Virus record (IMG/VR): IMGVR_UViG_3300044511_000013
Coordinates: 1 to 64,000 of that record
Direction: 5' to 3' (one strand)
Length of the DNA: 64,000 bases
DNA from: a virus
Shown here: in pieces, positions 27,270 to 39,620 of the stretch
How positions within the stretch are numbered: position 1 is the first letter of the stretch
How the letters are laid out: every line of letters begins with the position of its first letter
Translations under genes and position numbers: made by a program
The notes under the pieces: model-generated
Seen by the model: the letters and a program-made list of their open reading frames with translations, nothing else
What the model was told of the DNA's origin: nothing
Databases searched by the model: none

Positions 27270-28277
27270 CTACGAGCCCCTGTAGCCCTCTTGCCACCAT
27301 GCGGGGTTGTCCCGTACCCCGAGGGTGCCCCAGTTGATGTTGCTGTTGGTGCTGTTGCGCCACCACTCGGAGTCGTTGAGGTCCGTTGCCTTCTCGCCCA
27401 GCAACCGGTCCAACAGGCTCTTGCGCTTGGGCTTGGCGGGCTTCGGTGGCTCGGCCATCTTGCGGTCCCTCAGCGCCTTGCGCTTGGCCGCCGACGATGC
27501 TGCCGTGAGGGCGATCGCCGTCTTGTCGGTGTCCCAGTTGGCGTCCGCTGCCTCGACGGTGTTGCCGGTCAGCTTGCGCCAAGCGTCCTGCGAGAAGCCG
27601 TACTGGTTGCGCACACCGTCGCCAGTGTCCTCGGCCAACGCCTTGAACCAATCGGCCGGGGTCTTGTTGTAGCGCTTCGCCTGGTCCCGCCAGTCCGAAC
27701 CCGGCATCCCCTCGTCCGGTGCGTTGTCCCCGCCCAACCCCTTGACGTGCTGATTGCCCCGGAAGGGGTGGCCCGCCTCGCCGCTTGGGCCTGATCCACC
27801 GCCGCCCACCTTGACGTACTGGTTCCCACGGAACGGGTGTCCGGGGAAGTCACCCTTGGTGATCTTGGGCTTGGTGGGGTTCGGGTCGTCCTTCTTGGGA
27901 GGCTCCTCGCCGTCGACCATGAGCTTCTGGCGCAGCTTGGACCGCTTGTCGGTCGGCTTCTTGCGCTCAGGTATCTCCGGCTTCTCGTCCTCGGGCTCCT
28001 CGGCCTCACGGTCCTCGTCGAGTTCGTCCTTCTCGTCCTCGTCGAGGTCGGCTTCCTCGGTCCTGGGCTCGGGCTCGTCCTTCCCTGCAAACGGCTTCTT
28101 TTTGCCCTTGGGCTTCTCCGAACCGAGCGGCCGGTCGACATGGGTGTCGCCCCCGTCGGGTTCGGCCTTGGACACATCCCGCTTGAAGATCATCACTTCG
28201 GCACCGGGCTCAGCGGGTCGGTCGACCAGCGACACCCGACGCAAGCGGACCTTGCGGAGACGAGACACCCGAGCCAT
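27270..28277 (-). CDS. protease/scaffold N-terminal piece (VSLVDRPA) + acidic linker + two GHPFRGNQ tags + unknown domain
   Basis: RRVSLVDRPAEPGAEVMIFKR N-terminus; tags near 27741-27857. Confidence 0.7.
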   Translation of the reverse strand: MARVSRLRKVRLRRVSLVDRPAEPGAEVMIFKRDVSKAEPDGGDTHVDRPLGSEKPKGKKKPFAGKDEPEPRTEEADLDEDEKDELDEDREAEEPEDEKPEIPERKKPTDKRSKLRQKLMVDGEEPPKKDDPNPTKPKITKGDFPGHPFRGNQYVKVGGGGSGPSGEAGHPFRGNQHVKGLGGDNAPDEGMPGSDWRDQAKRYNKTPADWFKALAEDTGDGVRNQYGFSQDAWRKLTGNTVEAADANWDTDKTAIALTAASSAAKRKALRDRKMAEPPKPAKPKRKSLLDRLLGEKATDLNDSEWWRNSTNSNINWGTLGVRDNPAWWQEGYRGS

Positions 28278-28316
28278 CCCGGCCAGCGTACGAGTGTGCG
28301 CCGTGCAGGTGTTGCT

Positions 28317-36972: not shown

Positions 36973-39620
36973 GTGCCGACCTCCAGCAAGCGGCTGCGCA
37001 GGTCCGTTCGGGCCTTGGCAACCCACCACTCGCCCGGCTTGTCCAACTCCACCACGGCATCGACAAGCTCGAATGGGATGGGCTGCCGGTTCTTGGCGTA
37101 CTCGTCGGTGGCGAAGTACCACTCGGCGTTGGGATCGACTTTGATGCGCACGATCACAGCATCGGTCGCCTTCGTCTTCTCCATCGGGAAGTAGAAGGCC
37201 CCGGTGCTCCGGGTCGAAGCCACCGTACCCTCGTTGCCGATGTTCTCCTCGCCCTTGGTCTGAATGAAGCCACGGGCCTGGGCCTCGTCGTACTCCCGCC
37301 GATCCATCACTCTGAACACGTGCTGAAGCTGCCGGGGAGGCCCGACCTTGACGAACGGCCTTAGGCCGTAACCCGGTCGCATCTCGCTCTGGTCGTAATC
37401 GGCGACGGTCTTGTCCATGGGCATCGGTGTCCAGTACTGGTACTCCAAGCCCATGCGGCCGACGATGTGGCCCTCGTCATCCCAGGCCACGACCATCCTG
37501 GCCTCGATCTCACCTTCCTTGAGGTGAACGCCGCCGCCCACCTTGTTGGGTGCGTACCGCTCCGGGTAGAACCGCTTGGGGTCTTGGAGCAACTTGGCCT
37601 CGTCGGTGAGGATGGCGTCCCAGGCCGCCGAGGTATTGCCTCCCGGCACGCTGATCTTTTTCGGCTGGTGGACGGCCGTCGGTTGGCTCCGGCTGCCCAC
37701 CTTGACGTACTGGTTGCCCCGGAAGGGGTGGCCCTCGAAGTCGCCCTTCTCGATGAGCGCAGGATCGGCCGGGTACCCGGAACAAGACTGCTGAACCTCG
37801 ATGATGGCCCCGATCTCCAGCTCGCTCTTGACAACCTTGTCGTACCGGAGAGGTGCGTCGTGCTCGGCCAAGGCGACCACCTCGGTCACGAAGCTCACCA
37901 TGTCCGGGTTGAGCTGACGGTCCTTGCCCTTCCTGACGCCGTACTTGTCGGCGAACATGTACGCAAACGTCTCGGCGAAGTGCTCATCGAAGTGCTCTTT
38001 GGCGTACCGACTCGGGTAGACGGGCGACCAGAGGTTGTCGACTCCCATCACCCACCGGAACGTGGTGTTGGTAACGAGACCCTCGAACTGGAAGCGGTCC
38101 CCCGGTTCCCTCGGCTTCGTGAACCCGTTGGTGAGCCAGCCGTGCTTGGCCCGGTTGTACACAGCGTGCCCCATCTCGTGCAGGAACGTGCCCGAGAGCC
38201 CCGAGTCGGTGGTGAGGTAACCCGAGTCCACGCTCGCATCGTGAAGGCTGGGCTTGGACGCTGCATTGAACCCGATCCCGTGGATGAAACGGACCTTGGT
38301 GGAGTTGGCAAGTTGAGCGATGGCGAACGTCGTAGCCCCACCAGCCGTCTCGCCAAGCTCGCCGCCGTAGTACCCGAAACGAAATGCGTCGAGTCCCCGC
38401 AATGTCTCGGGAAAGTCCTGAGCAACCTTGCGCACCGTCTTGGCCAGCGCCTCGATGTCTGCCTCGGAGACTCCTCGGCCGGGGTCCCCCGGCATGAGCG
38501 AGACCTTGGCATTCGGCATGTAGCGCCGGAACTCCTTCTCCAGACGGTCCATCGTCGGCGTGATAGGGGGGATCGGGTCGCTGATGAACACGTGCGATAG
38601 GTACGCCGAAACCGGATGGTCCTGATAGCCCAACTGCCTTGCCGGGTCCGGTGTCCCGGCACTGGGCACCTTGACGTATTGGTTCCCACGGAAGGGATGA
38701 CCTGGGTAGTCGCCCTTCTGTAGCTCCTCGATGAAGCTGGCGGCTGCCGGTGCGAACACGAGCCCCATCGTGCAGCGGCACTGGGGGTGCGCAGCCGGTC
38801 GCTCGAACACGCCGTACTTGCCCTCGAAGCTCTTGCCGATCGCCGCCAGCCTGCCGTGCAGGTCGGCGCATATCTCGCAGCGCTTCTCGTCCTTGGCGGT
38901 GATCCACACCCGCTTCGTGAACTCGGGGTCGGGGTCGATCATCCCGGCGTCCACTCCCGCTACCCAAGCGTCATCGAGACCGAGGTTCTGAGCGTGCATG
39001 ATCTCGGTCCTGGCGATGTTCCACGCCCGGTAGGTGCGGAGCCGTGTCGAGTAGGCCGCCACCTGAGCCCGGCGTGCCGCAGTGTTGACGCCCCGCTTGC
39101 GCAGCCCGGCATCGAAGTTGGCGACCGCCTGAGCGTGCTGGGGGAGCAACCCCACGAGACGCCGGATGAGCGGCACGGCGTCGTCGATGGCCCCGCCGCC
39201 CCGGACGATCGTGTCGAGGACCTGGCGAATAGACTCCTGGGTCGGCGATGTCGTCGCCACCAACCGGTGCGAAAGCTGCGACATGGACTCAACCGCCCAC
39301 GGGTTCGTGGCGTTGAAGGTCAACTTGGCCGGAACCATCGCCGAGACAGCCGCAGAGCCCGCCTGAGCGGCGTGGAGGTACGCCTGGGCCACCAGAGCCC
39401 GGATTTGCTCCAGGTCCAGCCACAGGCCCTCTAGCGCTGAGGCACTGGGATAGACGCCCCGCTCCATCTCGGTGAGGACCTTGCGCAGCGCATCGGAGCG
39501 ATTGAGCCGCCCCACTGAGCGCAGGAAGGCACGGGCGATCTGAGGCTCAAGCTGATTCGAGACGAGCCGCAGCACCCCCGCCAGCCTGGCCCCGTCGATC
39601 TGGACGTTGGCACCGGCCAC
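36969..39620 (-). CDS. MuF/SPP1 gp7-like head protein fused to tagged metallopeptidase and ART-like domains
   Basis: RAWNIARTE, KRVWITAKD..C..C, PAAHPQCRC; two tags; HEMGH; follows portal. Confidence 0.85.
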   Translation of the reverse strand: MAGANVQIDGARLAGVLRLVSNQLEPQIARAFLRSVGRLNRSDALRKVLTEMERGVYPSASALEGLWLDLEQIRALVAQAYLHAAQAGSAAVSAMVPAKLTFNATNPWAVESMSQLSHRLVATTSPTQESIRQVLDTIVRGGGAIDDAVPLIRRLVGLLPQHAQAVANFDAGLRKRGVNTAARRAQVAAYSTRLRTYRAWNIARTEIMHAQNLGLDDAWVAGVDAGMIDPDPEFTKRVWITAKDEKRCEICADLHGRLAAIGKSFEGKYGVFERPAAHPQCRCTMGLVFAPAAASFIEELQKGDYPGHPFRGNQYVKVPSAGTPDPARQLGYQDHPVSAYLSHVFISDPIPPITPTMDRLEKEFRRYMPNAKVSLMPGDPGRGVSEADIEALAKTVRKVAQDFPETLRGLDAFRFGYYGGELGETAGGATTFAIAQLANSTKVRFIHGIGFNAASKPSLHDASVDSGYLTTDSGLSGTFLHEMGHAVYNRAKHGWLTNGFTKPREPGDRFQFEGLVTNTTFRWVMGVDNLWSPVYPSRYAKEHFDEHFAETFAYMFADKYGVRKGKDRQLNPDMVSFVTEVVALAEHDAPLRYDKVVKSELEIGAIIEVQQSCSGYPADPALIEKGDFEGHPFRGNQYVKVGSRSQPTAVHQPKKISVPGGNTSAAWDAILTDEAKLLQDPKRFYPERYAPNKVGGGVHLKEGEIEARMVVAWDDEGHIVGRMGLEYQYWTPMPMDKTVADYDQSEMRPGYGLRPFVKVGPPRQLQHVFRVMDRREYDEAQARGFIQTKGEENIGNEGTVASTRSTGAFYFPMEKTKATDAVIVRIKVDPNAEWYFATDEYAKNRQPIPFELVDAVVELDKPGEWWVAKARTDLRSRLLEVGT

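Follow-up and report, generated by a model that had tools for sequence, protein, structure and literature searches.

A stretch of 64,000 nucleotides of viral DNA (positions 1 to 64,000 of the IMG/VR record IMGVR_UViG_3300044511_000013, called the window below) contains, between the genes of the portal and the scaffold, seven consecutive open reading frames (ORFs) in which a peptide of the general form [K]G[DE]xxGH[PK]FRGNQ, the tag, occurs ten times. The seven ORFs, named A to G here, occupy 39620..27270 on the minus strand. We read the tag as a two-part header, made up of a cut site and a retained core, that opens each module of capsid cargo, and put the probability of this reading at about 0.55. 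The first part, hydrophobic-x-K/G-[DE] (the slash marks the presumed cut), would be cleaved after the Lys inside the procapsid by the XkdF-type prohead protease encoded in gene E. Cutting would separate from one another the modules within A, B, E, F and G, take off the leaders (10-29 residues) in front of B, C and D, and trim the scaffold body and F at half-tags. The second part, the core G-H-x-F-[RH]-G-N-Q-aromatic with a Gly/Ser-rich linker, would stay on the new N-terminus of the released module and would act as a flexible linear signal for procapsid loading, for exit with the DNA, or for both.

The initial annotation, made by a model from the sequence alone, had placed ten tags in seven consecutive, mostly stop/start-overlapping ORFs between portal and scaffold, nine of the tags behind a Lys, and this description was confirmed. 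A six-frame regular-expression search of the 64-kb window for GH.FRGNQ returned exactly ten matches, nine GHPFRGNQ and one GHKFRGNQ; all lie between 27750 and 38702 on the minus strand. Lys precedes nine of the ten in the context K-G-[DE]-x-x, and the tenth reads GPSGEAGHPF. Four junctions (A/B, C/D, D/E and E/F) are ATGA stop/start overlaps. When the full 72,437-bp record was scanned with a degenerate DNA pattern, eight of the ten tags and nothing else were recovered, and the reversed control pattern gave no match. The tags located in the six-frame search are listed here, followed by a half-tag from a six-frame search for KGD[FYW]:

38667..38717, minus strand: tag 1, KGDYPGHPFRGNQYVKV, behind the MuF domain of A
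37698..37748, minus strand: tag 2, KGDFEGHPFRGNQYVKV, in A
36889..36939, minus strand: tag 3, of the KGEAEGHPFRGNQHTGG subtype, in B
35959..36009, minus strand: tag 4, KGDYPGHPFRGNQYIKV, in B
34878..34928, minus strand: tag 5, in C
31816..31866, minus strand: tag 6, in D
30497..30547, minus strand: tag 7, in E, directly behind the protease domain
29262..29312, minus strand: tag 8, KGEAVGHKFRGNQHTGG, in F
27807..27857, minus strand: tag 9, in G
27738..27788, minus strand: tag 10, without Lys, PSGEAGHPFRGNQHVKG, in G, 6 residues past tag 9
29529..29543, minus strand: half-tag KGDWP, near the N-terminus of F

The mean amino-acid identity of the 17-residue tags is 74%. At identical tag residues, third codon positions agree in 66% of cases on average (range 33-90% between pairs), and some copies have exact runs of about 14-23 bases in common. 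Comparison of the 74% with the 66% indicates that conservation is at the level of the peptide and not of the DNA, in agreement with the earlier claim that selection acts on the peptide.

The genes that carry the tags, and the scaffold-like ORF that follows them, are composed as follows (lengths in amino acids, aa):

36969..39620, minus strand: gene A, 883 aa; MuF domain (residues 1-301), tag, HExxH zincin module A2 (319-624), tag, module A3 (642-883)
34963..36972, minus strand: gene B, 669 aa; 11-aa leader with LRYRLL, tag, module B1, tag, HExxH module B2
31950..34958, minus strand: gene C, 1002 aa; 10-aa leader, tag, large module without a family match
31006..31953, minus strand: gene D, 315 aa; 29-aa leader, tag, D1 domain (phrog_3170, 4.8e-45)
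29570..31009, minus strand: gene E, 479 aa; XkdF-type prohead serine protease (24-144), tag, zeta-toxin-like P-loop kinase (283-450)
28317..29573, minus strand: gene F, 418 aa; half-tag LDLK/GDWP (K11), 87-aa module F1, tag, ParB-like module with DGHHR
27270..28277, minus strand: gene G, 335 aa; scaffold-like N-segment, charged linker, two tandem tags, 155-aa module G3
26611..27207, minus strand: scaffold body, 198 aa, a separate ORF

Since A, E and G begin with a MuF domain, the protease and a scaffold segment, three of the seven products start with known procapsid entrants. The start of A matches the head-morphogenesis family phrog_3517 (3.4e-25), and PF04233 (MuF) at 3.4e-6 with 28.2 bits, below the Pfam cut-off of 29.6. 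The protease domain of E matches PF14550 (Peptidase_S78_2) at 1.4e-18 with 67.5 bits against a cut-off of 24, and its D51, H81 and S138, which we take to be the catalytic residues of the XkdF protease, are invariant across 17 aligned sequences. The fusion of tags behind MuF and behind the prohead protease, reported in the initial annotation, is thus borne out. The scaffold segment was recognized from a relative whose scaffold is a single 295-aa protein: its residues 13-58 align with the start of G (VSLVDRPA...IFK; BLASTP E 1e-4) and its residues 110-292 with the separate 198-aa ORF (BLASTP E 2e-13), which opens with the half-tag MTGTAK/GDFE. Because one protein of the relative matches both, the scaffold gene is, as judged from these alignments, split here, and its N-segment now leads two tags and the 155-aa module in G. 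It is most likely that the fused proteins load through these parts, known as anchors inside the procapsid (MuF for A, the protease for E, the N-segment of the scaffold for G); B, C, D and F, which are separate genes, are linked to the anchored ones by translational coupling.

Proposed cut site and head-protease families

The initial annotation had proposed that the prohead protease cuts between K and G. What stands of this is a cut just before G-D, which is supported indirectly by three kinds of sequence evidence: the residue at that position, tags that start at Met, and the half-tags. In proteins with at least three tags, at least 80% of the tags carry one and the same residue before the G in 94 of 132 cases, and K was the majority residue in 88 of these 132 proteins, L in 23, and F and A in 8 each. 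Head proteases were surveyed in 36 viral records that carry the tag and measure about 30 kb or more, 10 of which were at least 90% complete. XkdF was found in 16 of the 36 (6 of the 10 near-complete ones), all 16 of the K/R type, and S78 in two, one of them below the cut-off, both of the K type. The 15 non-K/R records (L, F, D, M, N and other) yielded neither XkdF nor S78. Mu-like_Pro (PF10123) was present in three of the 36 records, two of the L type and one of the N type, and in no K/R-type record. ClpP and S49 were each found in 0/20 XkdF-negative records. The S77 model (PF03420) gave no match in 36 and in 5 tag-bearing records and was silent in the control genomes too, hence this result is uninformative. 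By these counts the residue before G-D tracks the family of the head protease, and this lends indirect support to a cut just before G-D. They also show that the tag is not confined to XkdF phages, contrary to what had been predicted.

Five tags, in three records, start as M-G-D at the earliest start codon possible, and purine-rich stretches lie upstream of them. The initiator Met is usually removed before Gly, and M-G-D tags would therefore expose the same G-D N-terminus. In the window, KGD[FYW] occurs nine times in the six frames; seven of these lie in full tags, and the other two (K6 in the scaffold body, K11 in F) are within 12 residues of the N-termini. It was found nowhere else.

The tag in other genomes, its core and the alternative readings

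In IMG/VR contigs the back-translated core matches at least 114 stretches, and the matches listed contain 302 GH.F.GNQ peptides, 238 of them distinct and with full flanks. The core residues of these 238 are constant because the regular expression fixed G, H, F, G, N and Q and the contigs had been ascertained by the GHPFRGNQ DNA pattern. The flanking positions were free to vary, and among the matches listed (n = 238) G occupies -4 in 222, D or E -3 in 229, K -5 in 148 (otherwise L, S, F, D or R) and V, I or L -7 in 160. The consensus is a core G-H-x-F-[RH]-G-N-Q-[YWHF] followed by a Gly/Ser-rich stretch.

A profile of 36 columns, built on 78 tags, was searched against 1.84 billion cluster representatives and found 2,460 proteins at E<=1e-3, of which 491 reached 1e-10 and 88 reached 1e-30; the first figure is a lower bound, most single-tag proteins falling under the threshold. 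Some of the matches are up to 3,461 aa long and carry eight to nine tags each. Pfam domains were assigned in 56 of the best 150 proteins, taken in rank order, each of at most 1,350 aa and together up to 49,000 residues. MuF was found six times, ADPrib_exo_Tox and ART-PolyVal five times each, GNAT four times, DRAT three times, pentapeptide, zeta, LigT and ParB_N twice each, and InPase, topoisomerase I, Tpt1 and PI3/PI4 kinase once each. This is the domain repertoire of phage-type polyvalent proteins. The repertoire, together with the fusions of the tag to MuF, portal, DarA, XkdF and the scaffold segment, indirectly supports the view that the modules are probably capsid cargo of the polyvalent kind. 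The predicted restriction to portal-capsid intervals of XkdF phages was not observed.

Among prokaryote genomes (one per species, 185,579 species) the DNA pattern matched 38 stretches, of which 16 have the G-[DE] context and the following aromatic residue, the other 22 lying mostly in short or wrong reading frames; rough arithmetic gives about 17 matches expected by chance. Ten of the sixteen real loci were scanned. Three are Mu portals with the tag in a C-terminal extension, one of them with a PBECR2 nuclease, three are DarA_N/DarA_C/InPase/ddrB-ParB proteins, one is a PBECR1 protein and three have no family. The loci examined thus lie mostly in portal and Dar-type proteins, and wide occurrence in cellular or non-head contexts, which had been named as evidence against a role in the head, was not seen. 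Searches with the letter strings of the tag and by topic found no paper describing it, supplements being outside the reach of the search; the topic searches led only to the 2017 paper on polyvalent proteins and to work on P1 and T4.

Where the tag stands in a protein was determined for the best 150 multi-tag proteins. The first tag is within 40 residues of the N-terminus in 71 of them, the last tag is within 40 residues of the C-terminus in one (median distance 257), and Gly/Ser frequency peaks at +12 to +18 past the core. AlphaFold 2 (AF2) predicted no secondary structure for the tag alone (pLDDT, the model's local confidence score, 70; predicted template modelling score 0.15), and in full-length D it gave pLDDT values of 37-63 to leader and tag and of 91-99 to the adjoining domain. 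By its placement and these predictions the tag is a flexible linear motif belonging to the downstream module, a header and not a trailer, and its retention at the N-terminus of each released module is indirectly supported. A complex prediction of the tag with the capsid protein and the XkdF domain scored 0.02 (mark 0.32, no controls) and was counted neither for nor against the header.

The tag does not appear to be the sole signal of its kind. In the arrangement PF19846-header-D1 one protein uses the tag (…AKGDYPGHPFRGNQW…) and two others use …KYN[PT]xHD..GRFSS…; likewise, a homologous leader is followed by the tag in one protein and by …DWDEGAHPRGAGGRF…, of the HPR...GRF type, in another. The headers K[YF]N[PT]xHD..GRF(S) and …HPR…GRF stand at tag junctions in the relatives P0157, P0163, P0174 and P0152. 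Judging from these alignable junctions, at least two other header peptides replace the tag at the same place. In P0152 an XkdF protease is fused to ART domains through a K[YF]N[PT]xHD..GRF(S) header.

Nor is the tag strictly confined to the interval between portal and capsid. Several records of 92-178 kb, from large uncultured phages, contain islands of small genes (125-330 aa), each of which starts with a conserved leader (…ELLYPLTK, …TEILK) and a tag. In three of them the islands lie tens of kb from the protease and capsid genes:

97-98.7 kb: remote tag island in G030 (L116)
22-23 kb: remote tag island in G021 (L092)
129.5-130.6 kb: remote tag island in G023 (L094)

None of the candidates examined accompanies the tag throughout. 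As a universal partner, the phrog_1005 capsid was present in only 15 of the 36 records and 3 of the 10 complete ones, and MuF in 13 of the 36 at E<=0.01 with a Pfam model that is insensitive; the HExxH family of the window was found in 0/36 other tag-bearing records with a model made from two sequences only. Among portal relatives with at least 3 kb downstream, the tag occurred in only 3 of 48, a distribution that, like the exchange of headers at shared junctions, speaks for a portable element.

Several observations speak against the reading of the tag as a two-part header. The capsid of 10 of the 16 XkdF records is about 50% identical to that of the window, hence independent lineages are few. 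In 12 of the 15 non-K/R records no protease was identified with the XkdF, S78, Mu-like_Pro, ClpP, S49 and S77 models. A tag follows the XkdF domain in only 2 of 16 XkdF ORFs, and a fixed XkdF-then-tag arrangement was ruled out on this count. The core is near-invariant across differing proteases, capsid families and portals with no conserved partner found, and in polyproteins anchored by a portal or by MuF the complete core recurs between all modules, which pure loading would not need. Small header genes lie 25-45 kb from the head genes in the 92-178-kb records. The tag is nearly unknown among cultured phages: three tag queries against the GenBank phages (50,697 records) matched only Xanthomonas phage Rb1 (PQ569993), where a tag of the D/G-D type lies in a protein annotated 'internal head protein' in a P1 Dar-like neighbourhood.

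The position of tags between all modules of MuF- or portal-anchored proteins, up to nine per protein, and the dependence of the residue before G-D on the protease family would also suit a motif that is a processing site and nothing more, its whole 13-17 residues being a recognition sequence for the head protease, or for a metallopeptidase as in polyvalent proteins, with no later function as an address; the block itself encodes two HExxH modules. We consider this rather unlikely, given the five tags at an initiator Met with nothing upstream to remove, the N-terminal position of the first tag in nearly half of the multi-tag proteins (71/150), the identical core in XkdF, S78 and Mu gpI phages, and the failure of the two-sequence HExxH model to match any of the 36 other records. 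M-G-D proteins and remote header genes have no such upstream part, therefore a pure cut site would not explain them. The same remote, stand-alone header genes, and the disordered linear motif with its Gly/Ser linker, would be expected of a capsid-targeting peptide that is never cut and docks cargo on shell or scaffold in the manner of encapsulin cargo, with the Lys within the docking motif. This is improbable: the residue before G-D varies by lineage (K, L, F, A, D, N, M) with the rest constant and is uniform within one protein, the tag goes with at least two or three capsid families, and cargo fused to a portal needs no targeting.

Near-invariance of the core across phages of many host phyla with differing head proteins, and the retention of its own copy by each released module, however loaded, raise the question whether the tag acts after injection, on a universal host or nucleic-acid target or in tail threading, with loading achieved by other means. 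No candidate partner was found for such a role, and the genomic association is with head-assembly proteins, so that we regard it as unlikely. Polymorphic toxins have demarcating motifs at module boundaries, and the tag might by analogy be a recombination junction, a DNA cassette boundary for effector swapping with little role for the peptide. The tags do bound modules shuffled between phages, and some copies have exact runs of about 14-23 bases in common. Synonymous positions, on the other hand, vary freely (66%, down to 33%) while six residues never vary, and unrelated header peptides occur at the same junction, which makes this possibility very improbable. With regard to the two-part header itself, a label that is read after processing, for retention, exit or both, fits at least as well as a loading label. 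One can tentatively go a step further and suppose, doubtful as this is, that at least three interchangeable headers, exposed by the head protease or by Met removal, make up a portable address code in use among tailed phages. Some component present in every tailed-phage head, for instance the packaged DNA or the channel of portal and tail, would recognize the core, whatever is fused behind a header would travel in the capsid and depart with the genome, and the header would serve as an exit or threading signal and not only in loading.

The putative cargo modules and their neighbourhood

The labels given to the modules in the initial annotation fared differently. The zeta-like kinase of E is well supported (PF06414 zeta toxin, 1.9e-16, 60.5 bits against a cut-off of 22.3, with a GLPGAGKS P-loop), and the 'HDxxGH' module D1 is a real family. 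Support was weak for the HExxH and ParB-like modules. A2 and B2 are paralogous, 57% identical and both with HEMGH, and have weak ATLF (1e-3) and Peptidase_Mx matches; the ParB-like module of F has a weak match to phrog_1033 (8e-4) and the DGHHR motif. The remaining two labels are leads. B1 may be kinase-like on the basis of its language-model Atlas neighbours, which are unnamed phage clusters (0.97), the nearest named families being LepB_N, PI3_PI4_kinase and HipA_2 at 0.91-0.93. The suggestion of an ADP-ribosyltransferase (ART) in A3 likewise comes from Atlas neighbours (0.86-0.88); neither A3 nor the start of C had an ART match in Pfam, PDB-sequence or homolog searches. For gene C no family, PDB or homolog match was obtained. 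By eye, the start of its module has an R/STS/ExE-like pattern, and its C-terminal two thirds (31950-33900, minus strand) contain several repeats of the type P[KE]GW[KRA]W…G…W[YF]L. PADLOC gave no hits for the modules, and PDB sequence searches with four modules gave nothing below E 0.1. Two or more unrelated domains are present per polypeptide in A (MuF, HExxH and a third), E (XkdF and zeta) and B (two modules).

D1 (31009-31815, minus strand) has 139 homologs with an invariant RAVHDAFGH…GRGFDRHGEE core, which contains an invariant cluster of His, Asp, Arg and Glu. Its predicted fold (AF2, pLDDT 91-99 for residues 50-255) had no neighbour in the PDB at E<=0.001, and the fold recurs in viral proteins labelled head morphogenesis, ART-PolyVal or 'large polyvalent protein associated', as well as in Gordonia phage Skog and Mycobacterium phage Spud. 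D1 is a widespread domain of polyvalent proteins. In a public collection gene D is stored as a 253-aa protein (P0154) whose start is placed after the tag. Automatic choice of start codons can therefore hide headers, and this may explain why the motif went unnoticed.

Another short motif, L-R-x-R-L-L, is found no more than 16 residues from the C-termini of A, B and F and from the N-termini of B and E, and also upstream of the tags of G (residue 115); the cargo genes hold six of the ten hits in long ORFs of the window. It is also seen in the leaders of some D homologs (P0166, P0167, P0174). As a general companion of the tag it was rejected: in the best 150 proteins it stood in 7 of the 494 windows upstream of tags and in 4 of the 555 control windows. 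It is not enriched before tags elsewhere and is thus specific to the lineage of the window.

The source record is a complete IMG/VR virus (CheckV 100%) of 72,437 bp with a G+C content of about 65%. Megablast of the whole cargo block against GenBank phages gave no match. On the minus strand the order is Mu-type portal, genes A to G, scaffold-like ORF, a 141-aa head protein and major capsid protein, the flanking genes being:

39624..41297, minus strand: portal, Mu type, at the upstream edge of the cargo block (PF06074 Portal_Mu, 6.2e-36)
26181..26606, minus strand: 141-aa head protein with the PHROG label head scaffolding (phrog_673, 1.4e-12)
25155..26153, minus strand: major capsid protein (phrog_1005, 3.1e-83)

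Just upstream of the portal region a 440-aa ORF (41623-42945, minus strand) consists nearly entirely of about twenty copies of a 20-residue unit, ASEVDLGLAxGKAKAKxFTL, with a DNA period of 60 bases and matches of 70-83%.

Comparison with known systems

If the tag is a two-part header, it would provide a simple sequence rule for recognizing capsid-carried, injected proteins in uncultured phages, with thousands of candidates, likely to be anti-defence and host-takeover enzymes. It would also offer a handle on the sorting and release of non-structural head proteins, known in detail only for T4 and in part for P1, and a portable tag of 17 residues with a matching protease would be a practical tool for loading phage capsids.

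Encapsulin cargo-loading peptides, of about 10-15 residues and attached by a flexible Gly/Pro/Ala linker, direct unrelated enzymes into a shell of the HK97 fold. They co-vary with one shell family and are not cut, whereas the tag goes with several capsid families and has a lineage-specific residue where the cut is presumed. In the MuF-toxin fusions of temperate phages a MuF N-terminal domain is joined to a variable C-terminal effector. Gene A has the same construction, but with several modules, and the header is found on proteins without MuF as well.

In T4 a capsid-targeting sequence is present on the internal proteins IPI-III and on Alt, and is removed by the prohead protease gp21 (S77) at L/I-x-E. 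The likeness lies in a short N-terminal signal on unrelated proteins and in a hydrophobic-x-P1 cut, and the T4 cargo, which is injected with the DNA and includes an ADP-ribosyltransferase, resembles that proposed for the window. In contrast to the T4 signal, which is upstream of the cut and discarded, the core of the tag would lie downstream of the cut and be retained. The presumed P1 residue is Lys instead of Glu, the protease is of the XkdF type instead of S77, and there is no sequence similarity.

The Dar system of phage P1 (DarA, Hdf, DarB, DdrB) consists of internal head proteins that protect the incoming DNA (PMC12810830). According to the cryo-electron microscopy part of that account, the head protease takes about 69 residues off the N-terminus of DarA, which sits against the inner face of the capsid and departs with the DNA (PMC12810830). 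A connection exists in that the tag is found inside DarA_N/DarA_C/InPase/ddrB-ParB proteins of betaproteobacterial prophages and of Xanthomonas phage Rb1. Tag queries matched no P1 record, however, the window has no DarA or Hdf domains, and P1, as far as the same account goes, anchors its cargo by folded domains and not by a short peptide.

A parallel in domain content is provided by the polyvalent proteins described by Iyer, Burroughs, Anand, de Souza and Aravind in 2017, in which, according to the main text, ART, zincin, ParB, zeta-like kinase and GNAT domains are strung together (PMC5512222). There they are linked with MuF, portal or DarA, have their genes in head-morphogenesis modules and are thought to be packaged and injected, with autoprocessing by a metallopeptidase proposed (PMC5512222). 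The main text of that paper does not contain the string 'GNQ', supplements not being covered. The window resembles these proteins in having several unrelated domains per polypeptide, a MuF anchor and a location in the head module. It differs in that the string is spread over seven translationally coupled genes with one header per module, and in that the present evidence points to the prohead protease and not to a metallopeptidase. As far as can be judged from gene content and motifs, the block would combine a polyvalent-protein arsenal with protease-processed internal proteins resembling those of T4. It has the testable features of the former. It lacks those of the latter, since its protease belongs to another family and its signal would stand across the cut from that of T4.

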